IMG/VR virus record: IMGVR_UViG_3300024287_000004 | Location: 492 to 64,491 of that record | DNA: 64,000 nucleotides | Strand: one strand, 5' to 3' | From: a virus | Lineage: Duplodnaviria; Heunggongvirae; Uroviricota; Caudoviricetes | Shown: piece by piece, positions 11,096-41,351 of the stretch | How positions within the stretch are numbered: position 1 is the stretch's first letter | Layout of the letters: each line of letters begins with the position of its first letter | Position numbers and translations under genes: made by a program | Notes under the pieces: model-generated | Seen by the model: the letters and a program-made list of their open reading frames with translations, nothing else | The model's database searches: none | What the model was told of the DNA's origin: nothing

Positions 11096-11125
11096 GCCCC
11101 CAGCCTTTCGGTTGGGGGCTTTTTT
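11096..11125 (+). terminator. Strong rho-independent terminator at convergence of + and - gene blocks
   Basis: gcccccagcc-tttc-ggttgggggc 10-bp stem then tttttt 11120-11125. Confidence 0.75.
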
Positions 11126-11850: not shown

Positions 11851-12327
11851 TTATTGTTCGTCCTCCTTAAGCCACAACGTAGCGTCGTGAGCGTGGAGAA
11901 CAGCTTCAAAAATAGCAATGAGGCGTTTCTTATCCCCATTACCCAGACCCCCGCCAATCAGCGGGAGGTGAATCGGAATACCCGGCATATACTGGTCAAC
12001 GTACTTAACAACGTTTTGCAGGCCCAGTACCACCGCATCATACGAAACGTACAGCGTGTACGGGTTACGCCCGTATTCCTTTTGCGTGATGACGTTGGCA
12101 ATGCAACGATCCTCGTAGGGGTTCTCCCAGATGATCGCCTGTCCCAGCTTCAAACCGTACCGGCGTTCAGCTTGTTTGTAAACTAGGTAGGCTTCCGGGT
12201 GAAGGTCTTTGATGATCTTTGCTACGCCCGACCCCATCACACCCTTAGCATTGCAGCCGTGTACTACTAAACAACGCTTACCAGCCGTAGCGTTAAACAA
12301 GTCGCCAATTTGAATGTCAAGCGCCAT
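11851..12327 (-). CDS. Macro domain protein (ADP-ribose binding/processing)
   Basis: IQIGDLF..LVVHGCNAKGVMGSGVAKII and LPLIGGGLGNG resemble macro motifs (VNAAN..GGGVxGAI; G-x-G loop); track start TTG 12336, ATG 12327 preferred. Confidence 0.75.
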   Translation of the reverse strand: MALDIQIGDLFNATAGKRCLVVHGCNAKGVMGSGVAKIIKDLHPEAYLVYKQAERRYGLKLGQAIIWENPYEDRCIANVITQKEYGRNPYTLYVSYDAVVLGLQNVVKYVDQYMPGIPIHLPLIGGGLGNGDKKRLIAIFEAVLHAHDATLWLKEDEQ

Positions 12328-12541
12328 ACGCAACAACCACTTTAACTTTCCGGGTGTTAAAATCCTTAACTACCCCGAACATCTCACGGCTAGTGCCGTC
12401 TTTGACGCCAATATCCTTGTCAAACGTGAAGACACTACAACCCCCGAGCAAGCTGGCGATGACTTTTGCCTCGTCCTCGGTTTCAATCGTCAAGGTGAAC
12501 GGCTGGAATGCCGGTTTAGTTTCGATTGGCGTGCGTTTCAT
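12317..12541 (-). CDS. Hypothetical protein, 74 aa
   Basis: ORF only. Confidence 0.35.
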   Translation of the reverse strand: MKRTPIETKPAFQPFTLTIETEDEAKVIASLLGGCSVFTFDKDIGVKDGTSREMFGVVKDFNTRKVKVVVAYGA

Positions 12542-12626
12542 TTCACATCTCCTTTCTGCTCAGGAGCATTACCCATCTTACGGCAATGCTCGCAATTTTT
12601 AGAACATTTCTTCATTACCTACCTCC

Positions 12627-12905
12627 TTAATGAAACGTTGAATCGCTGTAGCAATTAGCAGCGATAAACAGCCGCGTATCCCCACCGATAATGGCGACAC
12701 GCTTAACGGGGTCTTCTAGGTAAAACCACTCCCCAGCAAATTGCCCGTTAAGCGATTCGGCAGTGATTACATTCGGCTCACTGAGTTCCACAATTATGTA
12801 CAGGCCAAGCTCAGGGCAATCGTCCCCATCGGGGCCTACGCCAGCGTCAGCGTAGAAAACAGATTGCCCTACAGCCAGTGGATTGCCGAACATATCCACC
12901 AACAT
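12627..12905 (-). CDS. Hypothetical protein, 92 aa
   Basis: ORF only. Confidence 0.35.
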   Translation of the reverse strand: MLVDMFGNPLAVGQSVFYADAGVGPDGDDCPELGLYIIVELSEPNVITAESLNGQFAGEWFYLEDPVKRVAIIGGDTRLFIAANCYSDSTFH

Positions 12906-12914
12906 GACAACTCC

Positions 12915-14291
12915 TTACGCAACGAAGAAACGTTGGCCCTTCGAAGCTGTTGGACCCGCATCATATGCCTTCTTACCCTGCACCATAGCATGAGCACGGG
13001 CCATATCGCGGGTGTCGTAGAACTTAGCACCAACCGGGGCAGTGTGGTAGCGAACACGGCCACCATCGCTAGGCATGATCGGCACAGGCTTTAGCACAGG
13101 CCACGATGCCGCTTGTTGGGCGATGTGCGCAGCTTGCGACGGGGCCTTAGCAGCCTTGGACGATGCCGGGTTAGGAGTCGGCTTGTTCGTTACAGGAACA
13201 GCAGGCAATTGCACAACTTGCGGCTTGTCTGCCTTCGGTTGCAAGTAAGCCAAATCCGCCTCAGTGAACGGCTTACCAATCGCCTTCCAGTAAATAACGC
13301 CCGTACCGCTAACCAGCTTGCGATTAACGCTCTCGCTCTGGATGAAGATGTCAAAATTGCCATGATCGCCCGGATGCAGACGAACGTTACGGTCATCCGG
13401 CAGGCCCAGCATCTCACGAGCATCAGCTCCGGCGTAAATCTTGCCGGTGTTGCGGTCACGCACAGCAATCATTTTCGTGGGCTGAACACGCGGTTCCGTT
13501 TTGGTAAGCTGGTAGAAAGCCGAGCCTTTCAGGTATTCCATGCGATGACGCAGGATGAACGGACGAATCTCGATTCCGTTATCTTCTGATGGAACGACAT
13601 ATAGCGAAACGTCTTTGCCTTCCACCAGTTCAACCAGCTTGCCAGTGTCAACAGCCGAAGCCGAGGCGTAGAACACCGTGGAGCTAGTTTTGCCTGCCGA
13701 GCGCATAGCGGAGAAGCTATTCACAGCAGCTTGAGTAGCAGCCGTGGACTTAGCCATACCTTCCGCAGTGGTTTCCCATTCGATGATATTACCGTCTGGG
13801 ATGCCCAGCCCTTGAAGCTCACTGCGGAAGCCAACGGGAACACGGCCCACGAAGGTCCAACGGCCCGTAGCTTGCAAGGCAGTGATTTTCCGACCCAAGG
13901 TGAACTGGTTGTACTCACGCGAGTGGCGTTCTTCCCCGTCCGTGGTAATCATAACCACGTAGGAAACGTTCGGCATACGCGCATCCGGCAGCGATTCGAA
14001 CAACTCAATCATCTCTCCGATGCCATCATACAGCGGAGTTCCACCCGGCGTAGGCCACGAGGTAAGAGGCTTAAGAACGTGCGGGTTCGAGATGACAACT
14101 TGGCGTTCCACTCCGTAGCCGCCGTTGCCAATACCGATGCCGACGACAGAAACGATGGTGTCAAGTTCTTCACGGGTAGCTGCGTCTTTAACAGCCTTAA
14201 TGTTGACGTTGTAGTCAGCCATCGCTGCATTTGCCAGCGAAGCCATAGAGCCCGAGTGGTCATTCACAAAGCCCCAGTGTGTTTTATTCAT
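12915..14291 (-). CDS. von Willebrand factor A (vWA) domain protein, 458 aa
   Basis: MIDAS motif FVNDHSGSM (DxSxS) and VVMITTDGEE (TDG); Pro/Ala-rich linker; RBS aaaaggaga. Confidence 0.65.
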   Translation of the reverse strand: MNKTHWGFVNDHSGSMASLANAAMADYNVNIKAVKDAATREELDTIVSVVGIGIGNGGYGVERQVVISNPHVLKPLTSWPTPGGTPLYDGIGEMIELFESLPDARMPNVSYVVMITTDGEERHSREYNQFTLGRKITALQATGRWTFVGRVPVGFRSELQGLGIPDGNIIEWETTAEGMAKSTAATQAAVNSFSAMRSAGKTSSTVFYASASAVDTGKLVELVEGKDVSLYVVPSEDNGIEIRPFILRHRMEYLKGSAFYQLTKTEPRVQPTKMIAVRDRNTGKIYAGADAREMLGLPDDRNVRLHPGDHGNFDIFIQSESVNRKLVSGTGVIYWKAIGKPFTEADLAYLQPKADKPQVVQLPAVPVTNKPTPNPASSKAAKAPSQAAHIAQQAASWPVLKPVPIMPSDGGRVRYHTAPVGAKFYDTRDMARAHAMVQGKKAYDAGPTASKGQRFFVA

Positions 14292-14344
14292 ATTTATTCT
14301 CCTTTTAAGTTATCTAGCAGGCACGCTATCTCTAACGTGCCGCT

Positions 14345-14374
14345 ATTTTACTACGTTTCTACTTACTAAGTCAA
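14345..14374 (-). promoter_or_regulatory. Sigma70-like promoter on minus strand (TTGACT-18-TAAAAT)
   Basis: revcomp agtcaa 14369-14374; atttta 14345-14350. Confidence 0.45.
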
Positions 14375-14379
14375 GCTGC

Positions 14380-16023
14380 TTAGCCGTGCAGGCGTTCTTT
14401 GATTTCAGCGAAGGTTTGGAAACGAACAAGACGGCCATTCTCAAACACAACCTTAAGCTCGCCCATCACTTCCTGATAACGCTCTTGCTGGTCGTACAGG
14501 ACGAACTTACCACCTTCGTTCTCCACACGCAGCAGGCCCTTAGCAGACTTCTTAACCCCGTCGCCGGTTTTGGGGTCTTTCTCAAGCTCTCGCGCTTCCC
14601 CGTTCACCACGCCCCACGTAGCCTTAACGGCCATACCGAACGTGTCACGGGTAATGTATTGGTAGGTGTAGCTACCAATGCCGAACACCACGTTAGCAGA
14701 GCTAAAGCCCTTCTCCATCAGGCGTTGCAGGATAGCTTCGCAGCGTTCCAACGTAATGCTATCCCCGTAAATCAGGCTAACGTGCTTGTCGAGGGTCTTG
14801 TAACCCTTGTCGGTTACAGTACCGCCGAATTCATCCCACAGGCATTCCACAGCACCTTTAACTTCGTGCTCAGCAAGCTCCTTGCCCAGAACGATAGTGT
14901 CAACACCGCAGTCGTAACAGCAAGAAGCCTTCGTGTGGAATTCGTAATACTTGCCTTGATACTTCACCGCGTCAGCGTCACCTACAGTGTCGTAAGCGTC
15001 AAAAAGCCCTGTAAGCTGTTCCACTTCCACAACCTTGTAGCCGGTCAGAATCTTAACAGGATCGCCCGAGTCAGGACGGAACACCACCTTAGCGTTACCA
15101 AATGCGTCTTCACCACGGGCCATGATTTCCGGTTTAAGCTCTTCCGCAAAGCGGGTGATAACCTGCCAGAAGTCCCATGTATCCGAGACGATGGAGACAA
15201 CCCCTTTAGGGTACACTTTGGTAATCAGGCGACGGAATGTGCCGATTTCATCGGGGCTCCCGCCCATGCACATGACGGAGTGCTCTGTAGCCGGGACTGA
15301 GCCTGCTACAAGTTCCTCCGTTACGTCAGCGCCGTAGTAGTACTCCAGATAGTCGATAGCGAGCAGGGCATCCGTACCAGAGCCAGCGGCCATCAAGTGT
15401 GCAGCACCGCACTTGGCCGAGTCGAAGCGGCCCGACATACCGCGCATGGAAAAATCGTGTGCTTGCCAGTTGACGAACATCGGGTCAGCCCCGGTCAATG
15501 CTGCGTACTTACCGATGAGACGGCGGTACTCGAACGCGATGGTGCCAACCGTAATCGGCTTCCACAGATCACAGGATAACACCGTTTCAAGGTAGTTAGT
15601 CAGCCAATAGAACTGCGGCAGCGTGTTCTTGATCGTCAGGAACGGAACACGGATGTCAACACGGCTACCCTCTGGCAGTGCCTTAATTACGATAGGCAGA
15701 TAGCCAAGATCGTGCAGGGCTTCGATGTGATCGGTGCGAACTGCGTTCTCCCCGAGGAAGTTATCACAGCGCCGTTTGTACTCCGCCACCACTTCTACCC
15801 TCGGACGTTGGAAGAAACCCTCGTTCCATTCTTCAATCAGGAATTCCAGAATGAAGCCTTGCAGGCCCGTAAACACCACCTTGTTATCAAAGGTGGAAGG
15901 CATCTTGGCATGGGCTGCACTACGGGCCGTGAAGTTTGAATACACGTACTCCGTACCTTCCGGGTACTGGTCGATATGCCCTAATTTATAACTATCCAAA
16001 GCCAAATGAGGTCGTTTTTTCAT
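14380..16023 (-). CDS. Nicotinamide phosphoribosyltransferase (NAMPT/NadV) family protein; candidate Namat of an NAD+ reconstitution pathway
   Basis: Collinear match to NAMPT: LDSYKLGH, LPIVIKALPEG..FYWLTNYLETVL, HDFSMRGMSG, SVPATEHSVM, VSIVSDTWDFW, VFRPDSGDP, IYGDSITL, KKSAKGLLRV. Confidence 0.9.
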   Translation of the reverse strand: MKKRPHLALDSYKLGHIDQYPEGTEYVYSNFTARSAAHAKMPSTFDNKVVFTGLQGFILEFLIEEWNEGFFQRPRVEVVAEYKRRCDNFLGENAVRTDHIEALHDLGYLPIVIKALPEGSRVDIRVPFLTIKNTLPQFYWLTNYLETVLSCDLWKPITVGTIAFEYRRLIGKYAALTGADPMFVNWQAHDFSMRGMSGRFDSAKCGAAHLMAAGSGTDALLAIDYLEYYYGADVTEELVAGSVPATEHSVMCMGGSPDEIGTFRRLITKVYPKGVVSIVSDTWDFWQVITRFAEELKPEIMARGEDAFGNAKVVFRPDSGDPVKILTGYKVVEVEQLTGLFDAYDTVGDADAVKYQGKYYEFHTKASCCYDCGVDTIVLGKELAEHEVKGAVECLWDEFGGTVTDKGYKTLDKHVSLIYGDSITLERCEAILQRLMEKGFSSANVVFGIGSYTYQYITRDTFGMAVKATWGVVNGEARELEKDPKTGDGVKKSAKGLLRVENEGGKFVLYDQQERYQEVMGELKVVFENGRLVRFQTFAEIKERLHG

Positions 16024-16034
16024 CGTTGTTCTCC

Positions 16035-16328
16035 TTATCGGCTAGCCGCTGCTTCCGCTGCTGCTTCGTGTGCAATGTCGGCTACGTAGTCCTTTAGCAG
16101 CGTACCCAGCTTGCTTTCAAAAGTTGGCTCTGGCTGCTCGGAAGCCTTCTGTTCACTTAGAAGGTTCAGCTTCCGTGCAACGTCGATGTGCACAACTTTC
16201 TCAATCGTCTTTTTCGTGGGGTAAGAGTCGGAGAGATGGGTTTGGGAAGAGATGCTTACTTTTACAAACTCTTCTTTACTACCTTGCTTTCCGCTTACAT
16301 CACACACATAAGTGGTGATAATTGCCAT
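16035..16328 (-). CDS. Hypothetical protein, 97 aa
   Basis: ORF between NAMPT-like and PRS-like genes. Confidence 0.4.
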   Translation of the reverse strand: MAIITTYVCDVSGKQGSKEEFVKVSISSQTHLSDSYPTKKTIEKVVHIDVARKLNLLSEQKASEQPEPTFESKLGTLLKDYVADIAHEAAAEAAASR

Positions 16329-16350
16329 TTTTTGTTGTTCTCCTTATTAG

Positions 16351-17175
16351 TTAAATAACCAAACTAACCTTGCCAGATGCTACGGCTGCTTCGCCCTTAG
16401 CACCTACAGGGTTGCTAGTGTACAGCTTATCTACCAAGCCGTCAAACACTTCCACACCAGCCGAGAAAATGCCGTGCGTAACGTACAGCATTACTTGGCC
16501 GTCCGTCAGCTTACGCAGTTCCTTAGCAAGCTCGGTGAAGGTACGTCCGCCGTCGCAGATATCGTCCACGATGAGGAAGTCTTTATTACCTACGTGCTCG
16601 CTGTACACGGCAGTCCCGGTAACCTTCCCGGTCAGCACATCACGGGTTTTATCGGCCCGTACAACGTGCGCAAAGCCATGATCCTTGGCGATTCCCAGTA
16701 CTTTCTTGTTTGCTCCAGCATCCGGGCTTACAAGCACGGTAGTGTCGTGGTCCAACCATTCCAGCAGAGACGCAATCTTTTCCGTTGCAGGACGGTGCAC
16801 AAGGTTGTTAATAAGTGCTTCCGCAACATTGGAATGGAGGTCGTAACACACTACCTCGGTGAAACCTAGGCTGTTGATGAAATCAGCCACCACCTTAAGC
16901 GACAGGCTTTCACCGGGCGAGCACACCCGGTCTTGACGAGCGTAGGGCATGTACGGCATGACTAGAATAATTTCTACTTCGCTGCCATATTCCCTGCGCA
17001 GAGCGTCCACCAGCAATGCAAGGTCGATGAGGTCGCTGTTACTTTCGTAATTCAGCTTGATTGACAGCCCCCAAGCGGGCGGCATGTAGCCGAGACGCAG
17101 AAACGTTTCCCCGGCAGGGAATTGGCGAAGCTCGAAAGGGACAATGGCTCCGCCCACGAATAGTTTTAGGCTCAT
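16351..17175 (-). CDS. Ribose-phosphate pyrophosphokinase (PRPP synthetase) homolog, short form (274 aa); candidate ADP-ribose pyrophosphokinase (Adps)
   Basis: LKLFVGGA, DLALLVDALRR, MPYMPYARQDR, DLHS, LIVDDICDGGRT (PRPP-binding loop); RBS caaggag. Confidence 0.85.
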   Translation of the reverse strand: MSLKLFVGGAIVPFELRQFPAGETFLRLGYMPPAWGLSIKLNYESNSDLIDLALLVDALRREYGSEVEIILVMPYMPYARQDRVCSPGESLSLKVVADFINSLGFTEVVCYDLHSNVAEALINNLVHRPATEKIASLLEWLDHDTTVLVSPDAGANKKVLGIAKDHGFAHVVRADKTRDVLTGKVTGTAVYSEHVGNKDFLIVDDICDGGRTFTELAKELRKLTDGQVMLYVTHGIFSAGVEVFDGLVDKLYTSNPVGAKGEAAVASGKVSLVI

Positions 17176-17180
17176 GGTTG

Positions 17181-17375
17181 TTACTCCTTGTGGTTATCAT
17201 GTTGTTCTTCCTCGTTATCAGCGTAAGGACAGCTGAGAGGGCCGGGGCAGGGGCCTACAGCTTCCCCGTCGCACTGGCACTGTTCGCTGCGTTGTTTCTT
17301 ATGCTTCTCGGTCCGTAGCTCTGTTAGCTCGTCTTGGTCAAGCATTATCTGTGCCATATAAAAGGCCGGAAGCAA
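17181..17375 (-). CDS. Small Cys-rich acidic protein, 64 aa
   Basis: CQCDGEAVGPCPGPLSCPY; ORF only. Confidence 0.3.
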   Translation of the reverse strand: MLPAFYMAQIMLDQDELTELRTEKHKKQRSEQCQCDGEAVGPCPGPLSCPYADNEEEQHDNHKE

Positions 17376-17381
17376 GCCAGC

Positions 17382-17729
17382 CTACAGCTGCTGTTCGATG
17401 GCGTCAGCCAATTGCTCGAAGGTAGCGCCGTTGTCATTATGAACAGAAAGGCTCTCCGTGCGATCCTTAATACAGACTTCATCTTGCATCCAGACAAGGC
17501 CAGCCCAGTCTTGTACAGCTTCGGTAGGTACGCAGTATCCCTTGCCGTCATATGCAAAATCCCCAAATTGGTCCTTTACCCACGCACCTTGTTGGGAAAC
17601 GTCGCTGATAACACCCCAAGCGCAGAAGCAGTCTTCACTGCGGAGAAACATACGCCCCTGCTTATATTTCCCGCTGCGCAGGGCTTCAACGATTTTGGCT
17701 TTGGCTTCCGGGTTCATCTTCTTAGTCAT
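17382..17729 (-). CDS. Hypothetical protein, 115 aa
   Basis: RBS aaggag; promoter 17772-17801 upstream. Confidence 0.5.
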   Translation of the reverse strand: MTKKMNPEAKAKIVEALRSGKYKQGRMFLRSEDCFCAWGVISDVSQQGAWVKDQFGDFAYDGKGYCVPTEAVQDWAGLVWMQDEVCIKDRTESLSVHNDNGATFEQLADAIEQQL

Positions 17730-17771
17730 GTTTTTTCTCCTTGATAAGTTGGAATAAAGCTAGTGTAGCCC

Positions 17772-17801
17772 ACTTTCTAGCTACCTGTCAAGCTTTTTGG
17801 C
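17772..17801 (-). promoter_or_regulatory. Sigma70-like promoter on minus strand (TTGACA-18-TACACT) with CTAGCT upstream element
   Basis: revcomp tgtcaa 17796-17801; agtgta 17772-17777. Confidence 0.5.
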
Positions 17802-18280
17802 GTAATAATTTCAACACCCTTGGCTGTAAGGCTGTCGAACAAATCAGCCGGGATACTACGGATAGGGTGCAGGTAGGAGGGCTTCCCAAGCTCTGCCATG
17901 TAGGTAGCCATATCCAAGCTGCCTGTACTCTTATTAGGCCCCTCGGTAATTCCACTCCAAACAATAAGCGCCTCGTCAGCAAAGTCGCCCATCTCGTGAT
18001 TACGCCAGATGCCAGCTAGCAGGTTGAATTTCTTACCATCTCGTCGCGTTCTTACAACAGCCCCCGGCGCTTCAATGTCATCCCACTTGGCCGGGAAAGA
18101 GTGAATCTGTAGCCCATTCTTCTTGGCAAACTCTTCGCCCAGCGTATCAACCCCGTCAGCCTTCCCGCTCACTACTTCAATGCTTTTCTTGTGCTTTGCC
18201 CACAAGCCCGATTCGATGATGGCACGCTTTACCGTGTCGTAGCTTGTGATGCTGCGCGAGCCAGCGATTATGAGTTTCAT
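17777..18280 (-). CDS. YspA-type SLOG domain protein (DUF2493 family), 167 aa
   Basis: KLIIAGSRS, VVSGKADGVDTLGEEFAKKNGL..FPAKWD, AGIWRNHEM, ALIVWSG pattern matches DUF2493/SLOG Rossmann-like family; track TTG start 18301, ATG 18280 preferred. Confidence 0.65.
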   Translation of the reverse strand: MKLIIAGSRSITSYDTVKRAIIESGLWAKHKKSIEVVSGKADGVDTLGEEFAKKNGLQIHSFPAKWDDIEAPGAVVRTRRDGKKFNLLAGIWRNHEMGDFADEALIVWSGITEGPNKSTGSLDMATYMAELGKPSYLHPIRSIPADLFDSLTAKGVEIITPKSLTGS

Positions 18281-18486
18281 TTCTGCCCTTTCCGCACACA
18301 AACCATCTTAGGGTCGTAATGCCCCATGATGTTAAGCTCCCGGCCTGCCTTGCTCAATGCAGCCCCGGCTGCAACGCAAGCCTCTGGCGTGTTGAACTCA
18401 CCCATGTTTGCATACTCAACGCGTGGCCCATAGCCAGCGACAAAAGCTACTAACAAAATGTAAATCATTTCTGCTCCTTTGCCCAT
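18277..18486 (-). CDS. Small membrane protein, 69 aa
   Basis: MIYILLVAFVAGYG TM segment; ATGA overlap. Confidence 0.4.
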   Translation of the reverse strand: MGKGAEMIYILLVAFVAGYGPRVEYANMGEFNTPEACVAAGAALSKAGRELNIMGHYDPKMVCVRKGQK

Positions 18487-18749
18487 TTAACCGCAGCTAC
18501 AACAACATCCCCGTGACAGGGCCGAGGCTTACAAAAGCATCCCAGCCGTTTGCCGTCCAGAGAACGTAGGTAGCTAAGCGTTATATTACCTTGTTTGATT
18601 TGATCCCACAGCCATCCCCTGTACCATGCAATGACAACCTCTCGCGTATCTCCGATGGCGTCATTAATCGGACGCAGGTTTCCGAGCCTGCTACCCCGGC
18701 CTATATAGACATCGTAGGCTTCGTAGTGCTTGTTTACAACGGTACACAT
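18465..18749 (-). CDS. DUF4326 family protein, 94 aa
   Basis: DVYIGRGSRLGNLRP ... GCFCKPRPCHGDVV signature. Confidence 0.7.
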   Translation of the reverse strand: MCTVVNKHYEAYDVYIGRGSRLGNLRPINDAIGDTREVVIAWYRGWLWDQIKQGNITLSYLRSLDGKRLGCFCKPRPCHGDVVVAAVKWAKEQK

Positions 18750-18849
18750 TTGTTCGCGTATTCAACAAAGACTACAAACCATTCTAGCCATGCGTCTACG
18801 TCCTCTCCTGTGTACGGTGCTCCTAGTACAAGTACGGGTGGTAATGCAG

Positions 18850-19146
18850 TCATTCGTGGCCCTCCATAGTATGCAAGATAGCACGCGGATTGTCATCTAT
18901 CCAAATGTCAATGCAGATGCCATTAGCGAACATGAACTTTTCCTTGGCCTTACGCCCCGTGGCATAGAACCCGTGAACAGGGTGAGGTTTGCCCTCGAAT
19001 TGTGCATAAACTTTGGCCATCTCTCCGGGGAATCTCCAAGTTACGATGTACACTTTGTGCCCAGCTTCACGGAAGGTTTTGATAACCTCGTCCCAGAGCG
19101 CCGGGTCGCGGGTGTAGGTATCGTCGTAGTCAAGTCCGATGTTCAT
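18850..19146 (-). CDS. Minimal HAD-superfamily phosphatase-like protein, 98 aa
   Basis: Motif I GLDYDDT (DxDxT), motif II VYIVT, Lys GRKAKEK, motif IV IWIDDNP. Confidence 0.45.
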   Translation of the reverse strand: MNIGLDYDDTYTRDPALWDEVIKTFREAGHKVYIVTWRFPGEMAKVYAQFEGKPHPVHGFYATGRKAKEKFMFANGICIDIWIDDNPRAILHTMEGHE

Positions 19147-19621: not shown

Positions 19622-19651
19622 AGTGTAGCCGAAGCCTAACCAGCCTGTCAA
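19622..19651 (-). promoter_or_regulatory. Sigma70-like promoter on minus strand (TTGACA-18-TACACT)
   Basis: revcomp tgtcaa 19646-19651; agtgta 19622-19627. Confidence 0.5.
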
Positions 19652-20064: not shown

Positions 20065-20532
20065 TCACTCACACCCATTTTCCTCCATATACTTTAACAC
20101 CAACCGTATCTCATCTACGTTGGCGTCATTTTTATATCTGTTAGCCTTGTTACTTATTACTCGGACGTTACCCGGCACGTATCCCAGCTTAGGTCTCAGC
20201 CTGTCTAAGGAGGGAGTCCAGTCTATATCCAAAATCTTCAGCGGTTGCCCGAACACAGGACAGACGGCAGGAATAACAACGTCCCCTACGCTAATAGAGA
20301 ATGGACTTCCTTCCAGCTTTGCTCTCCGTTTAGCCCGATACCACATTTTGTACTCGTGGGAAGACTCCCGATATTCGCGCTTTGCCTTAGCTATTGAGCA
20401 GGCTTTGCACTTAGAGTTCTTGCCCATCCCAGTCATAGTGTGTGACCCAAACTCGCTTAGTGGCTTGAATGTGTCACACGTGTAACAAGGGCGCTGGCCT
20501 TCTGGCCAGTCTTTTACCCTCAATCGCTTCAT
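20065..20532 (-). CDS. HNH endonuclease (Zn-finger + HNH_3-like)
   Basis: CYTCD..CKAC; PSLDRLRPKLGYVPGNVRVISNKAN. Confidence 0.7.
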   Translation of the reverse strand: MKRLRVKDWPEGQRPCYTCDTFKPLSEFGSHTMTGMGKNSKCKACSIAKAKREYRESSHEYKMWYRAKRRAKLEGSPFSISVGDVVIPAVCPVFGQPLKILDIDWTPSLDRLRPKLGYVPGNVRVISNKANRYKNDANVDEIRLVLKYMEENGCE

Positions 20533-26412: not shown

Positions 26413-26631
26413 TTAGTGCTGCACGGCTGCGTAGCCGTCAACCATGCCCTTAAAGTGAGCCACGCCGATTTGGGTAAATCCCGCAGCAGCCTCCCCGGTA
26501 AGTCCCATTTCTACCGCCCCTGCATTAAGGAACGAGACAGCGGAAGCAGCCAGTACTTCGAGGATTTCAAGGTTGCTCAGGCCGTCCATAGCGTCAACCA
26601 CTTTAGCGCCTGCTTGTTGTTTCTTGTTCAT
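26413..26631 (-). CDS. Hypothetical protein, 72 aa
   Basis: RBS aaggagaacgaac before ATG. Confidence 0.45.
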   Translation of the reverse strand: MNKKQQAGAKVVDAMDGLSNLEILEVLAASAVSFLNAGAVEMGLTGEAAAGFTQIGVAHFKGMVDGYAAVQH

Positions 26632-27172
26632 GTTCGTTCTCCTTAAAAATTTGAGTTACAAGCGCCCTTCGCTTGCTTTCATTGCTAACAGAAGTGCCAG
26701 TATACCCGTAAGAAGCTAGGAAAGCAAGAACTTTTTTCTTGTCCTTAAGCGCAGCCGTAACTTTCTTCTCTAGCTTCGCCTCTTCCAAGCTAATGCCCTT
26801 GCTCTGGGAGAGAGTGTAGCACTTGTGACAGGGCTTACACAATACCCGCAGGTTGTCAACTTCACAGTATAACCTGTTAACAAACGGGCCTATATCTTCG
26901 AAGCTTAGTATGCTACCAGCATCATGCGGGTAGTGGTCAACCTCGATATCATTAAGCATGAAGTAGTCGTTACAGAGGGCGCATTGCACTTCCCACTTTT
27001 GGCGCTTGTTCTGTCCCACATACGGCCTTCTAGCACGTTCAATGGCTTGGCTACGGGGTTTCCACTTGAGCCATTTGCTACGTAGGGCAGAACGAATCCA
27101 AGCTAGATACTGTGCCTCGGTCATCGTGCCAGAGCAGCGGGTTAGCTGGCCTTTGGTTTTCTTGGTAGCCAT
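26603..27172 (-). CDS. HNH endonuclease
   Basis: CALC...EVDHY...CKPCHK. Confidence 0.65.
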   Translation of the reverse strand: MATKKTKGQLTRCSGTMTEAQYLAWIRSALRSKWLKWKPRSQAIERARRPYVGQNKRQKWEVQCALCNDYFMLNDIEVDHYPHDAGSILSFEDIGPFVNRLYCEVDNLRVLCKPCHKCYTLSQSKGISLEEAKLEKKVTAALKDKKKVLAFLASYGYTGTSVSNESKRRALVTQIFKENEHEQETTSRR

Positions 27173-27732
27173 TAGACACCGTGCCTTTCTGAGTAGCCAG
27201 CAGCAGTATTCACCACGCTATCCCTGTACTCCGACGCCAGCCTAAACGCCTCTGCATCGCCATAGGTTGCTATCTTAAAAGATTTAGACCGTTGCCGCCC
27301 CGCCGCGTCGTTCCATGTGGCAACCCAGTGAGTGTGTGACTTTCTGGCTACTCCTACCTTTCCAGAGATATTGTTTCTACCTTTACGCCTGTTTTTGGCG
27401 TTCTCCTTAGAGGTCACAGCCCGCAGGTTGCTAACTTGGTTGTTGCTTCTGTCTCCGTCGATGTGGTCTATATACCTTCCTTCCAGTGGCCCATGTACCA
27501 ATTCGTACACGATGCGATGGCACTTATACGACTGTCCCTCGCAGTACACCGCCCAGTACCCCTTTGTAAGCATATGGCCTGCGGGGGAGCCTTTCGGCTT
27601 TCTCATATAAAGCTCCCCGCCAAACTTAGGCAGCAACCAATCCTTAGCTCGGCGTAGGCCACTCGGACTGGTGGGGTCGTAGTAGAAATGCTCAGACCAG
27701 TTAACGGATTTTGTATCTTTTAAGCGGCCCAT
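27172..27732 (-). CDS. HNH homing endonuclease (HNH_3 + AP2 domain)
   Basis: HRIVYELVHGPLEGRYIDHIDGDRSNNQVSNLRAVT; AP2-like GVARKSHTHWVATW. Confidence 0.75.
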   Translation of the reverse strand: MGRLKDTKSVNWSEHFYYDPTSPSGLRRAKDWLLPKFGGELYMRKPKGSPAGHMLTKGYWAVYCEGQSYKCHRIVYELVHGPLEGRYIDHIDGDRSNNQVSNLRAVTSKENAKNRRKGRNNISGKVGVARKSHTHWVATWNDAAGRQRSKSFKIATYGDAEAFRLASEYRDSVVNTAAGYSERHGV

Positions 27733-33494: not shown

Positions 33495-33779
33495 TTACTT
33501 TCTTCGCCTTTTCCTGTAAATCTTCTGCCTTTCAGCCCGCTTAGCCCATTGCTCAGGCTTAAACCTGTAGGTGGCGTTTAAGCTGTTAGCTAATAAGTGC
33601 GGTACATGCCACGAACCATCACGCGGGGTGGACCAGCCAGCTATTGCCCCGCTCGCTTTATGCCTCGCCCTCATGTAAGTACTACCACACACCACTTCAA
33701 AACCTAGTGCATGGTAGTACATAAACGTTCCCAGCCATGCTAGCGGTCTTTTATCCGCTTCGTCGTATGCTTTGCCCAT
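33495..33779 (-). CDS. Hypothetical basic protein, 94 aa
   Basis: ORF. Confidence 0.4.
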   Translation of the reverse strand: MGKAYDEADKRPLAWLGTFMYYHALGFEVVCGSTYMRARHKASGAIAGWSTPRDGSWHVPHLLANSLNATYRFKPEQWAKRAERQKIYRKRRRK

Positions 33780-34357
33780 TACCTGACTCCATGTGTGGCT
33801 GTGTAACCAGCACCTTGTTGATTAAGTTCTCCCAACATCTTACTCCTATACTCGCACGCTGACTGGTAGGCTACGTATTCCCCCAGTTGCTTGATATTAA
33901 ACCGCTTGTGGCCTCTACTGCCATCCGTCCTGCACCATACAGCTACCCAGTACTCCGTACCCCTCCCGTTAGTGCCCCTTGACACGCCAGTAACGCCAGA
34001 AATGTTATCCCTCCGTTTTGCAGCGTTCCTAGTGTTTATTGCATTAGGCACCGCTCGCAGGTTACCTACGCTATTGTTCAGATAATTACCGTCCAAGTGG
34101 TCTACTACAAATCCCTCCGGGATAGGGCCGTTGTGCATCTCCCAAATAATACGGTGTACTTTGTAACGCTTACCTGCCAAGAGCACGGTTGACCTCTCCC
34201 CGTTCTTCTTACCGGCAACATCGCCCTTTCTAATGTGGGTCAAGATGTTTTTTGAGTTGTAAACGTCAATCGCCCAACGGAGGAATGTTGGGCTTGTTTC
34301 GTCGTATACAAAGTAATCGGTCCACTTAATATGCGAAGTATCTAGCGGCTTCGGCAT
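33779..34357 (-). CDS. HNH homing endonuclease (HNH_3 + AP2 domain)
   Basis: HRIIWEMHNGPIPEGFVVDHLDGNYLNNSVGNLRAV; AP2-like GVSRGTNGRGTEYWVAVW. Confidence 0.75.
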   Translation of the reverse strand: MPKPLDTSHIKWTDYFVYDETSPTFLRWAIDVYNSKNILTHIRKGDVAGKKNGERSTVLLAGKRYKVHRIIWEMHNGPIPEGFVVDHLDGNYLNNSVGNLRAVPNAINTRNAAKRRDNISGVTGVSRGTNGRGTEYWVAVWCRTDGSRGHKRFNIKQLGEYVAYQSACEYRSKMLGELNQQGAGYTATHGVR

Positions 34358-39850: not shown

Positions 39851-40110
39851 GTTTGTTTCTCCTTGTCTATAAGTTTGCTATGCAGGTAGGTAGAGCAAAT
39901 ACTACCCAACCCACCACCCAAGCCGACCGCTAACACTATCCAGCCCCAGCCGCTATGAACAACGTTCAACAGGATTGCTGCTTCGCATGCAGCCATGCAC
40001 ATGCTTGTTGGCAGAATCCAGCCGTACTTGCGGTGGACAACGTTGAGTTGTTGCCAACTCCGCAAGCCGATATTCAGGAAGCTAGTAATGAACGCTAGCA
40101 GGTAAATCAT
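39838..40110 (-). CDS. Small membrane protein, 90 aa
   Basis: Three hydrophobic segments. Confidence 0.4.
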   Translation of the reverse strand: MIYLLAFITSFLNIGLRSWQQLNVVHRKYGWILPTSMCMAACEAAILLNVVHSGWGWIVLAVGLGGGLGSICSTYLHSKLIDKEKQTCKE

Positions 40111-41351
40111 TTGGCGTCCGCAATCGTGTAGTGCCGTGGGTCTTTACCGGCGTGGACCACTTGAAGTTGTTTCACAATCTCCTTGAGCATTTCACGCTCT
40201 TTCAGGTAGCCGCTAGGGATTTGCCTATCGTCAATAAGCGTCCCTGATGCACGGGCATCTAGCAGGATAGCAATGTTAGCCAGCACACCACCCAGATTCG
40301 GGCAACCATCAGCCGGGTCAAATTCTTCGCCCTCGGCCCACGCCATCAAGTGACGCAAAGCAGCAGCGATGTAGATAGACGCCTCAACCTTGGTAGCACG
40401 GTAGTTACCACGCCCGTATTTCAGCGAACCGTTGTAGAGCGAAACAGCGCCGTAGGCACTAGCAAGCGGACTCCACAGGTTCAGCGGAATAGCCGACAGG
40501 CCATACTGACGCTTCGGGTTGGTGTCGGGTTCCACTTCTGGCACTTCAACAAAAACGTCAGGCTGTTTGGCCACTACATGGCAAACACGGTACGCCACAA
40601 TGTCACCGGGGCTACCGAAGTGATACCATCGCATTACGCCAGCACCATTTACCGGGTACACCTTGTGGCTATCGCGGAACTTGATTTCAACAAAGGTATC
40701 CTTGTCAACCGGGCACTCCCCACCACTCCAGAGGATGAAGCCGTCTTCGTCAGTGGTAACTACTTCCTTACCGCCAGCATCTTCCACAATGCCTTTCACC
40801 ATCTCTTGCACGCTAACCGTCTTCGGTTGTTCTGCGAGCTTATAGTACTCCACGGTCATATCGGGGTTGAAGCCGAATGGAATGCTATAGTCATGAGCCG
40901 GGTCAATGCCCGCAGCCCCACGGCCACGCACTTCTCCGCAGCGGAGCACAACAGAACCTACCTTACCCTCTGGCTTCGTACCCGTGTTCTTGATCCAGCC
41001 TTCGGTTAGCATACGTGTGTCTTTCTTACGGCGCTTGCTATCTTTTTTCCGAGCCTTACGGATGGCCTTCACTTCGTCAGCAGCTTGGCTAAGATCGAAC
41101 ATGGTAATTTCGCGGAAGTCCATGACTCGGCCAGTGTTGCAGAATTCAGTAGACTGCATCATGCGGTTGTCTTTATCGACATATACGTATCGCGTGTTAT
41201 ACCCGTCCCGCACGGTACGCCCGCCGCTAATCCACTGGAACCCCATCTTGAACATTAGTTCTTGCGCACGCTTGAATTCATCCACGTTAGCAACGTTGAT
41301 GAAGGTGCGCTTGAACTTATCAGTGAGGTGGTTGGTTTTAAAACTTTCCAT
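40107..41351 (-). CDS. Hypothetical protein, 414 aa (N-terminal FKRAQELMFKMGFQW domain)
   Basis: ORF; promoter 41383-41411 upstream. Confidence 0.5.
   Translation of the reverse strand: MESFKTNHLTDKFKRTFINVANVDEFKRAQELMFKMGFQWISGGRTVRDGYNTRYVYVDKDNRMMQSTEFCNTGRVMDFREITMFDLSQAADEVKAIRKARKKDSKRRKKDTRMLTEGWIKNTGTKPEGKVGSVVLRCGEVRGRGAAGIDPAHDYSIPFGFNPDMTVEYYKLAEQPKTVSVQEMVKGIVEDAGGKEVVTTDEDGFILWSGGECPVDKDTFVEIKFRDSHKVYPVNGAGVMRWYHFGSPGDIVAYRVCHVVAKQPDVFVEVPEVEPDTNPKRQYGLSAIPLNLWSPLASAYGAVSLYNGSLKYGRGNYRATKVEASIYIAAALRHLMAWAEGEEFDPADGCPNLGGVLANIAILLDARASGTLIDDRQIPSGYLKEREMLKEIVKQLQVVHAGKDPRHYTIADAK

Follow-up and report, generated by a model that had tools for sequence, protein, structure and literature searches.

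The stretch of DNA analysed here, hereafter the window, comprises 64,000 nucleotides of a caudovirus (Uroviricota; Caudoviricetes; IMG/VR record IMGVR_UViG_3300024287_000004, positions 492 to 64,491) and stems from a 90,368-bp metagenome contig (ENA ERZ27256725) of an uncultured phage; a database search found no near-identical DNA among cultured phages. Positions 11851-19146 of the window hold a block of genes centred on a putative NAD+ (nicotinamide adenine dinucleotide) reconstitution pathway 1 (NARP1), i.e., a PRS-like and a NAMPT-like gene, accompanied by genes for a Macro domain, a vWA domain, a SLOG domain, a DUF4326 protein, and a minimal HAD-type phosphatase. NAD+ depletion and signalling by derivatives of ADP-ribose (ADPR) rank among the commonest bacterial anti-phage strategies, and NARP1 is the principal countermeasure known from phages.

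Every sizeable open reading frame (ORF) of the block is located on the minus strand, to which all coordinates of block features given below refer. The order of transcription is 98-aa HAD, DUF4326, 63-69-aa ORF, SLOG, 115-aa ORF, and 64-aa Cys-rich ORF, followed by the 274-aa PRS-like gene, a 97-aa ORF, the 547-aa NAMPT-like gene, the 458-aa vWA gene, a 92-aa and a 74-aa ORF, and the Macro gene, so that six small ORFs without annotation (74, 92, 97, 64, 115, and 69 aa) accompany the seven larger or annotated genes. A preliminary description of the window, made from its sequence alone, had placed seven co-oriented genes here, and all seven were recovered at their positions and on the minus strand. 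Its domain calls were likewise confirmed, with profile searches supporting the Macro, SLOG, and NAMPT assignments; its statement that all seven have nucleotide- or ADPR-related folds had to be narrowed, since vWA is a protein-interaction fold and neither a nucleotide nor an ADPR fold. The block forms the 3' end of a 38-kb minus-strand arm for replication and nucleotide metabolism, which encodes a class II ribonucleotide reductase (RNR), glutaredoxin, a MazG-like pyrophosphohydrolase, a metallophosphoesterase, an exonuclease, PolA, UvrD- and DnaB-type helicases, ThyX, and an ATP-dependent ligase. The placement in an early region was thus not borne out, as the run of small ORFs that resembles true early genes sits at 50-61 kb of the window. 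The GC content of the block equals that of its flanks, so that it does not represent a compositional island.

Adps-like, Namat-like, and Macro genes

The gene at 14380..16023 encodes a 547-aa protein of the NAMPT family (PF04095, 1.5e-34; NAMPT_N, 2.4e-8; phrog_448, 8e-193), a candidate for Namat, the nicotinamide ADP-ribose transferase of NARP1 step 2. In a phmmer search against the PDB, the protein matched Namat of Bacillus phage SpbetaL1 (9w5x) at 5.5e-154, compared with ~5e-60 for human NAMPT and 3e-51 for Xcc (Xanthomonas) Nampt. For a survey of gene neighbourhoods, 79 viral contigs encoding relatives of the window Namat were used and their ORFs searched with iterated hidden Markov models (HMMs), yielding 82 loci (denoted by L and a number) and 42 Namat lineages after dereplication at 85% identity. 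Namat enzymes are distinguished by the motif GS-X-Phi-X-Phi-X-Phi-TRD, in which X stands for aromatic residues that hold the adenine of ADPR pyrophosphate (ADPR-PP) in a clamp (PMC12774641). Residues 450-460 of the window protein (GSYTYQYITRD) fit this selectivity-clamp helix (SCH) motif, which 60 of 79 related Namat ORFs share. Aligned to 9w5x with HMMER, the window protein is identical at all of the SpbetaL1 residues D13, Y15, F189, R192, D215, R306, D308, G360-D361, and T398-R399-D400, and it retains the catalytic-core blocks D..Y, FSMR, GTD, RPD, and GD; A362 of SpbetaL1 is replaced by Ser. Residues ~330-387 of the window protein form an insert of ~58 aa relative to the solved SpbetaL1 enzyme and carry a CCYDCG motif.

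Upstream of it, the gene at 16351..17175 encodes a 274-aa PRS-like protein (Pribosyltran_N, 1.3e-12; phrog_619, 1e-81), the candidate Adps (ADP-ribose diphosphokinase) of NARP1 step 1. This protein passed only the broad TIGR01251 (ribP_PPkin) model (130 vs 113 bits) and stayed below every Prs equivalog cut-off (e.g., 113 vs 297). Published hallmarks of Adps are its shortness, the absence of the alpha11-12 module, a remodelled pyrophosphate (PP) loop with Cys after DDI, and a retained Lys in the catalytic loop; Adps of ICP1 has 282 aa and is devoid of the C-terminal alpha11-12 (PMC13586617). The window protein is ~40 residues shorter than Prs (~315), its PP loop DDICDGGRT has Cys where Prs has Ile/Val-Asp-Thr, with the identical nine residues in 39 Namat-adjacent homologs, and the Lys of its 'ADKTRD' aligns with the catalytic-loop Lys. 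The assignment as Adps is based on these published features (PMC13586617).

Across the survey, an Adps homolog was located within 10 kb of Namat at 78 of the 82 loci. The two window genes are separated by one 97-aa ORF (16035..16328; no Pfam or PHROG match), which had homologs in none of the fetched loci and is unique to the window genome; the corresponding gap in relatives contains unrelated small ORFs or HNH homing endonucleases. No NMNAT, NadM, NadR, or Nudix protein was seen in the Pfam scans and precomputed labels over ~9-64 kb of the window (the first ~9 kb were only sampled, and the remaining 26 kb of the contig, beyond the window, were not covered in full), which argues against NARP2 as well as against a complete salvage route. 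Because Namat and Adps carry the published sequence signatures, i.e., the motif GSYTYQYITRD and closeness to SpbetaL1 Namat on the one side and the short PRS-like protein with the PP loop DDICDGGRT on the other, the pair is classified by sequence as NARP1 and not as ordinary NAD+ salvage, in agreement with the preliminary description. In the databases, the window Namat is matched best (57% identity) by an entry labelled 'Acinetobacter phage MD-2021a' (L001, CAKLQF020000015.1), which carries genes of bacterial type (ABC transporters, an AraC regulator, an efflux pump) along with a prs-nadV-nadM salvage operon; the phage label is probably wrong.

The Macro gene ends the block (11851..12336; 12327-11851 and 158 aa according to the gene caller) and encodes a protein of 158-161 aa of the Poa1p/BT1257/TARG1 class. 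Searched as a single sequence, it scored just below the cut-off of the Pfam Macro model (20.4 vs 22 bits) and matched phrog_335 'phosphatase' in PHROGs (8e-34). A 21-sequence family profile was searched against the PDB and matched BT1257 (4e-26), SCO6735 (5e-21), Poa1p (8e-19), DarG (1.5e-16), and TARG1 (1e-15). The motifs GDL, HGCN, MG(A/S)G(I/V)A, and GGGLGNGD are conserved in the family. Where DarG and TARG1 have MGKG, the window protein has MGSGVA and the family MGAGIA, i.e., the catalytic Lys is absent, and the NCBIfam DarG model gave 39 bits (5.6e-10) against a cut-off of 250. With 161 aa, the protein is a single domain, whereas antitoxins of the DarG type have a DarT-binding domain at the C-terminus. 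The best match to the protein was found in Pseudomonas phage Astolliot, where all neighbouring genes are annotated as hypothetical.

A role for such proteins beside NARP1 has been described: the RES-domain defence aRES converts NAD+ to nicotinamide and ADPR-1''-phosphate (ADPR-1''-P), which NARP1 cannot use. A Macro protein similar to Poa1p, Adpp, is encoded in 15% of NARP1 operons and converts ADPR-1''-P to ADPR, the extended pathway (NARP1-AP) defeating aRES (preprint of January 2026 from the Sorek laboratory, bioRxiv 10.64898/2026.01.28.702374). With the iterated HMM, the Macro family of the window was detected within 10 kb of Namat at 42 of 82 loci and in 10 of 42 Namat lineages, arranged as Namat-Macro-Adps at L037, L038, L040, L048, L074, L076, L079, and L080, and as Adps-Macro-Namat at L036, L044-47, L054, L058, and L082. 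Identity between the window Macro protein and the operon-embedded ones outside its own phage family amounts to only 22-34%. Since the ligand-binding motifs are kept, the Lys of DarG and TARG1 is absent, the DarG score is low, and the family is embedded in NARP1 operons, the sequence of the window protein identifies it most likely as Adpp, i.e., an ADPR-1''-P phosphatase.

SLOG, DUF4326, and HAD genes and the remaining features

The gene at 17777..18301 (alternative start 18280) encodes a stand-alone SLOG protein of the YAcAr/DUF2493 type (167-174 aa), which matched PF10686 (YAcAr) at 1.1e-8 and 35.2 bits (gathering cut-off 28.2), with weak DprA matches besides. Against the PDB, the single sequence matched nothing and the profile only DprA (E ~0.8). 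G7, R9, G39, A41, G43, and D45 are invariant in the alignment (Gly-rich loop, GxAxGxD), and RN..M is conserved. The nearest families are YspA/DprA-like (YAcAr/DprA-like branch) and not ThsA, so that sensing of glycocyclic ADPR (gcADPR), as suggested in the preliminary description from ThsA, is a weak analogy drawn from superfamily membership alone. SLOG proteins of this family were found in 423 phage records, including phiEco32-like phages, in which the gene lies beside that of an RNA polymerase sigma factor (the presence of NARP1 in those genomes was left unchecked). Close to Namat, the family was detected at seven of the eight loci of the window's phage family (five close-family lineages), as well as at L012 and L067.

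DUF4326 is encoded at 18465..18749 (94 aa) and was identified via PF14216 (1.3e-19, 71.1 bits vs gathering 25) and phrog_464 (1.4e-33); a single-sequence search against the PDB returned no match. Within the phage family, it occurs only at L003, L008, and L026, and near Namat in two lineages. A NADAR gene directly precedes DUF4326 in L026 (6199-6636, PF08719 1e-26) and L008 (6225-6638, 2e-24), giving the order NADAR-DUF4326-x-SLOG in both. No NADAR gene was found in the window, nor is there a remnant of one in the 100 bp that precede DUF4326 (18750-18849). A 63-69-aa ORF (18277..18486) overlaps the SLOG and DUF4326 genes with its start and stop, which suggests translational coupling of the three.

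The first gene of the block (18850..19146) encodes a 98-aa protein with the motifs of a capless HAD-type (DxDxT) phosphatase, hereafter HAD98. No Pfam family matched at threshold, and the single-sequence PDB search gave only noise. An alignment of 41 sequences shows no variation at D6, D8, R38, K68, D84, and D85 and very little at T36. The AlphaFold2 (AF2) model reached a predicted local distance difference test (pLDDT) score of 96.6, and its top Foldseek match was the phosphatase domain of T4 Pnkp (probability 0.99, TMq 0.67, E 0.07), other HAD phosphatases being listed as well; E-values are weak for so short a query. According to the model, the protein is a genuine minimal HAD phosphatase fold. 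HAD98 relatives were located near Namat in three lineages.

Neighbourhoods of this kind have been described before: SLOG, Macro, and NADAR domains occur in conserved neighbourhoods and fusions in phages, with the probable role of binding or degrading soluble immune ADPR derivatives (Iyer et al. 2022, PMC9503650). In the same work, DUF4326 was placed in the rhodanese-phosphatase superfamily, and the co-occurrence of Macro, NADAR, and SLOG at the genome level was above chance (PMC9503650).

The 30-mer pattern TTGACAGG-N14-GGCTACACT has two exact matches in the window (0.17 expected), both in intergenic gaps and on the coding strand, i.e., the minus strand. One copy (17762..17791) lies between the SLOG gene and the 115-aa ORF, the other (19622..19651) upstream of the run of 150-aa ORF, HAD, DUF4326, and SLOG. 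From their sequence, the two sites are likely sigma-70-type phage promoters. In the overall scan for promoters and terminators, counts equalled the shuffle expectation, and only this repeated 30-mer stood out.

Accessory genes of NARP1 in other phages were collected from 145 representatives of gene clusters that recur, no more than 6 kb from Namat, at two or more of 70 non-family loci. A nucleoside 2-deoxyribosyltransferase-like protein (PF15891, up to 1e-35) directly follows Namat at 21 loci (e.g., L044:12509-12973, L049:11837-12310, and L059:9487-9999), and NADAR adjoins Macro in the L043 group (L043:6221-6694). A relationship of the SLOG protein to the deoxyribosyltransferase-like accessory was considered and rejected, as hhalign returned none. 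A further family of ~143 aa without a Pfam match (X143) carries the HAD motifs DxDxT...T...K...DD; its profile matched the PDB entry 2obb at 3e-8 plus further HAD entries, and hhalign linked it to the HAD98 family (90.7%, E 1.3e-6). X143 occupies the slot between Namat and Adps at L031 (11533-11961), L033 (11533-11961), L077 (11536-11964), L022, L024, and L025, and in sister contigs with Namat at least 85% identical (L037, L038, and L040, 11536-12027; others) the same slot holds Macro; at L016 (7930-8814), X143 is fused to a PF15891 domain. Judged from its sequence and position, X143 looks like an alternative, non-Macro phosphatase in the place of Adpp. Neither the X143 mini-HAD nor the deoxyribosyltransferase-like accessory is mentioned in the NARP1-AP preprint, and no paper on NARP1 together with 'deoxyribosyltransferase' was found in the literature searched. 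Taken together, the neighbourhoods suggest that NARP1 operons repeatedly acquire interchangeable ADPR-trimming enzymes, i.e., Macro, mini-HAD, deoxyribosyltransferase-like, NADAR, and SLOG/DUF4326 proteins.

The 458-aa vWA protein (12915..14291) has no Pfam match and consists of an N-terminal vWA domain with a metal-ion-dependent adhesion site (MIDAS), a beta-rich middle part (~220-340), a Pro-rich linker, and a conserved C-terminal domain of ~45 aa. In the MIDAS (DHSGS...T85...TTDG), D11, S13, S15, T85, and D118 are shared by all of 33 homologs and T116 by nearly all. The AF2 model has a pLDDT of ~90 for residues 1-200, and its top Foldseek matches in the PDB are all vWA or integrin I domains (probability 1.0); Ku80 appears among the weaker fold matches. 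The 906 matches to homologs constitute a metagenomic family, mostly on contigs of up to ~90 kb. The gene follows Namat at all eight close-family loci; outside the family, only a short vWA-only gene was found, at L059. Gp196 of Caulobacter phage Cr30 (L083), with 44% identity, is encoded between a helicase loader and a single-stranded DNA-binding protein, with no NAD+ genes nearby. A function of the vWA protein as a partner of NARP1 was rejected as the main reading in view of this single occurrence near Namat outside the family and of the Cr30 homolog in a replication cluster; the gene is probably a passenger unrelated to ADPR handling.

Among the small ORFs, the 74-aa one (12317..12541) has homologs at five family loci, where it takes another position, downstream of Macro, and the 92-aa one beside the vWA gene (12627..12905) has homologs at eight loci, on either side of the vWA gene; neither matched a known family. 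The 64-aa Cys-rich ORF (17181..17375), which is missing from the gene calls of the source, has homologs directly upstream of Adps at seven family loci. The 115-aa ORF (17382..17729; precomputed PF26948, DUF8296; phrog_18067) is preceded by the promoter-like site described above, and a terminator-like hairpin is present at 17383-17363. Homing-endonuclease genes (HNH-AP2, NUMOD4-HNH, and T5orf172) occupy the variable slots of the phage family, the one between Adps and Namat among them; they were located in relatives at L005:13400-13966, L005:5335-5937, L006:9395-9970, L007:5797-6345, and L007:6496-7089, and in the arm of the window at 20065-20532, 26603-27732, and 33779-34357.

Two observations concern the wider arm. 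A GC-rich hairpin with a 10-bp stem followed by a T-run (11096-11119) lies between the convergent late (plus-strand) and replication (minus-strand) arms and is probably a terminator common to both. Between the DnaB-like and UvrD-like helicase genes, a 414-aa protein (40107-41351, minus strand) has an N-terminal dATP/dGTP diphosphohydrolase domain (PF18909, 2.4e-18), which may hint at modified-nucleotide metabolism.

Interpretation of the block and alternative explanations

We consider it probable that the block represents two known kinds of phage NAD+/ADPR counter-defence module placed side by side, accompanied by passenger genes. Its core is likely a NARP1-AP-type pathway. Folds, family signatures, gene order, and conservation were observed directly, and the reactions of Adps, Namat, and Adpp are assigned from the published enzymology of homologs. 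After cleavage of NAD+ by NADases of the host (Thoeris, DSR, SIR2-HerA, SEFIR, and others), Adps would convert ADPR and ATP to ADPR-PP, and Namat would join ADPR-PP with nicotinamide to give NAD+. Macro, acting as Adpp, would strip the 1''-phosphate from ADPR-1''-P, the phosphorolysis product of aRES, and so feed NARP1. The vWA gene and small ORFs would have been inserted between Namat and Macro in the phage family of the window.

The second module would consist of HAD, DUF4326, the 69-aa ORF, and SLOG (18.3-19.1 kb), with NADAR in two relatives, and might bind or degrade soluble ADPR derivatives, the products of which possibly feed NARP1; the activities of SLOG, DUF4326, and HAD as well as the coupling of the two modules are speculative. 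We regard the SLOG-DUF4326 cassette as a second module adjoining NARP1, whose functional coupling to the pathway is plausible in view of the precedents Adpp and RyDEP. A stronger version, in which the cassette would join Adpp and RyDEP as a third type of feeder and turn a host signal derived from ADPR into ADPR for the adjacent Adps/Namat pair, appears unlikely at present. Its substrates may then be N-glycosidically cyclised ADPR, ADPR cyclic phosphate, or other phosphorylated ADPR, or else a non-canonical NAD+ breakdown product.

The clustering itself was quantified by placing four independent units uniformly at random: their occurrence within 6.9 kb has p ~0.02 for the arm and 0.0016 for the genome, which are crude values since phage genes cluster by function anyway. 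The preliminary description had regarded the combination as undescribed. This has largely been superseded, as Macro, Adps, and Namat together make up the published NARP1-AP (2026), and neighbourhoods and fusions of SLOG, Macro, NADAR, and DUF4326 with the same predicted role were reported by Iyer et al. 2022 (PMC9503650). The general idea of a multi-layer counter-defence module has experimental precedents in Adpp and RyDEP, accessory enzymes that supply NARP1 with ADPR made from ADPR derivatives, and the vWA protein drops out of it on account of the homolog in the replication cluster of Cr30. Similarly, the proposed linkage of Macro and SLOG to the enzyme pair, and the conservation of the neighbourhood by which it was to be judged, hold for Macro (many lineages, i.e., 10 of 42) and are weak for SLOG, DUF4326, HAD98, and vWA, whose occurrence near Namat is almost confined to the family.

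Several findings weigh against this interpretation. Counted downstream from Namat, the window Macro gene comes fourth (third or fourth in relatives), 2.0 kb away on the same strand; the intervening genes in the phage family are those of the vWA protein, the 92-aa ORF, and, in some members, an HNH endonuclease. The Macro gene thus falls outside the rule for NARP1-AP, by which the Macro gene lies within two genes of the NARP1 pair (bioRxiv 10.64898/2026.01.28.702374). The best solved relatives of the Macro profile are BT1257 and SCO6735, ahead of Poa1p, and the single sequence scores DarG macrodomains (5m3i, 7e-6; 5m31, 5e-5) over Poa1p (0.016). In Namat, Arg40 of the SCL loop, which stacks on adenine, could not be aligned reliably, as the window loop is four residues longer and places Ala opposite Arg40; the SCL loop of Namat is known to be variable (PMC12774641). 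As for the cassette, SLOG was detected near Namat in only 2 of ~37 other Namat lineages outside the close family, and SLOG, DUF4326, and HAD98 are tied to NARP1 almost only within the phage family of the window. Whole-arm synteny is kept there anyway, so that conservation of the cassette in the family says little about function, and DUF4326 and HAD98 are each absent from several family members. Furthermore, the promoter-like sites at 19651 and 17791 flank the run from HAD to SLOG, which suggests that the cassette may be a transcription unit of its own.

An alternative explanation holds that there is no functional unity beyond Adps and Namat, with Macro, SLOG, DUF4326, HAD, and vWA being independent accessories in a variable stretch shuffled by homing endonucleases. 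The near-absence of SLOG, DUF4326, HAD98, and vWA around Namat outside the family fits this explanation, as do the wide distribution of the SLOG family (by a sigma-factor gene in phiEco32-like phages), the vWA homolog in a replication cluster, the variable slots full of HNH/AP2, NUMOD4, and T5orf172 endonucleases, and the promoter-like sites inside the block. It is nevertheless doubtful, given that the Macro family is strongly tied to NARP1 across unrelated lineages and that Macro, NADAR, and SLOG co-occur at the genome level above chance (PMC9503650). Other lineages have moreover independently gathered Adps, Macro, NADAR, Namat, and DrHyd, or a mini-HAD, around NARP1, which indicates that recruitment of ADPR-processing genes to NARP1 is recurrent.

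An ordinary auxiliary salvage route, by which the PRS-like enzyme would supply phosphoribosyl pyrophosphate (PRPP), the NAMPT-like enzyme would form nicotinamide mononucleotide (NMN), and NMNAT of the host would complete NAD+, as supply for replication and not for counter-immunity, would turn the other genes into general neighbours from nucleotide metabolism. The block does lie in the nucleotide and replication arm, by RNR, glutaredoxin, the MazG-like gene, and ThyX; Namat keeps PRPP-dependent NMN synthesis in vitro (PMC12774641), and NadV of the Acinetobacter-type prs-nadV-nadM operon is the best database match (57%). We regard salvage as improbable, since the scans over ~9-64 kb of the window (the first ~9 kb only sampled) showed no NMNAT, NadM, or NadR, the adenine-clamp motif is present in Namat, and the PRS-like protein is truncated, has the PP loop of Adps, and stays below the Prs equivalog cut-offs.

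The Macro protein, perhaps along with DUF4326 and the NADAR of relatives, could instead be an orphan DarG-like antitoxin that reverses ADP-ribosylation of DNA or RNA against DarTG-type defences, and not a feeder of NARP1. The closest solved relatives of the single sequence (5m3i and 5m31) and its sole notable NCBIfam match (5.6e-10) are indeed DarG, NADAR genes are present in relatives, and phages are known to carry orphan NADAR antitoxin-like enzymes against DarTG1 (PMC11257639). The replacement of the MGKG Lys (MGSGVA; MGAGIA in the family), the 39 bits against a cut-off of 250, the preference of the family profile for BT1257, SCO6735, and Poa1p, and the members embedded in NARP1 operons render this quite unlikely. 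A by-product route of RNA repair and tRNA splicing, in which Macro clears Appr-1''-p while RNA ends left by anticodon nucleases are healed by HAD, as a 3'-phosphatase of Pnkp type, together with DUF4326, would agree with Poa1p being the Appr-1''-p phosphatase of tRNA splicing, with the T4 Pnkp phosphatase domain as the nearest fold to HAD98, and with RNA ligase genes near NARP1 at a few other loci, and is highly improbable, as neither the block nor those parts of the window that were surveyed yielded an RNA ligase, KptA/Tpt1, 2H phosphoesterase, or kinase domain.

If the block is read as NARP1-AP with an adjoining ADPR-derivative module, it adds an environmentally abundant group of uncultured ~90-kb phages to the carriers of NARP1-AP. 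It would also mean that a Macro phosphatase can be linked to a NARP1 operon at a distance, cases that the rule of two genes undercounts. NARP1, its Macro partner, and the predicted association of SLOG with DUF4326 were already known; new here are the displaced Macro gene and the adjoining SLOG/DUF4326/HAD cassette. SLOG, DUF4326, the 98-aa HAD, and the NADAR of relatives are candidate accessories beside NARP1, joined in sister loci by the mini-HAD in the Macro slot and the deoxyribosyltransferase-like protein after Namat, and they point to bacterial non-canonical NAD+ breakdown products or signals that are yet to be discovered. Were the feeder reading true, NARP1 operons would be hubs that recruit interchangeable ADPR-trimming enzymes according to phage lineage.

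Comparison with known systems

The bacterial prs-nadV-nadM operon (e.g., of Acinetobacter) shares with the window a PRS-like gene directly upstream of a NAMPT-family gene, the product of which matches the window Namat at 57%, and differs by including NadM (NMNAT/ADPR pyrophosphatase), of which none was seen in the window. With the NARP1 systems of Bacillus phage SpbetaL1, Escherichia phage Bas63, and Vibrio phage ICP1 (Osterman et al. 2024; PMC12774641; PMC13586617), the window has in common the SCH motif and catalytic core of Namat, the length and PP-loop type of Adps, the adjacency of both genes, and the absence of NMNAT. Differences concern the ~58-aa insert and the longer SCL loop of the window Namat as well as the PP loop of Adps, which reads DDICDGGRT in the window and DDICD-x-AAS in ICP1.

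The closest counterpart of the core is NARP1-AP of Vibrio phage Gary (Osterman et al.), whose operon has the order Adps-Adpp-Namat (bioRxiv 10.64898/2026.01.28.702374). Both systems combine an Adps-clade enzyme with a Namat that carries the clamp motif and a Macro protein of the Poa1p class, encoded close together on one strand and with the predicted route from ADPR-1''-P via ADPR and ADPR-PP to NAD+; the likeness of the window Macro to Adpp of Gary is one of family and gene position. Gary was absent among the matches listed for tblastn searches with the window Macro and with an operon-embedded Macro, the latter of which matched 1853 records. In contrast to Gary, the window Macro is located outside the operon, ~2 kb or four genes downstream of Namat and behind the vWA gene, and a 97-aa ORF parts Adps from Namat.

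For the accessory genes, the precedent in logic is RyDEP, a RyR-domain glycosidase in the NARP1 operon of mycobacteriophage DyoEdafos that converts 2'/3'cADPR to ADPR, from which NARP1 forms NAD+ (PMC13232231). There, too, an accessory beside NARP1 turns an ADPR-derived immune molecule into linear ADPR. Pfam searches detected no RyR-domain (PF02026) protein among the proteins of the block, small ORFs included, and the candidate accessories of the window are Macro, SLOG, DUF4326, and HAD instead. In comparison with the neighbourhoods of Iyer et al. 2022 (PMC9503650), whose published role is a prediction, the window has separate small genes and not fusions, a minimal HAD is attached, and the cassette abuts NARP1. 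What both share is a stand-alone YpsA/YAcAr-like SLOG protein encoded beside DUF4326 (with NADAR in L026 and L008) in a medium-sized caudovirus with NadV-type NAD+ synthesis.

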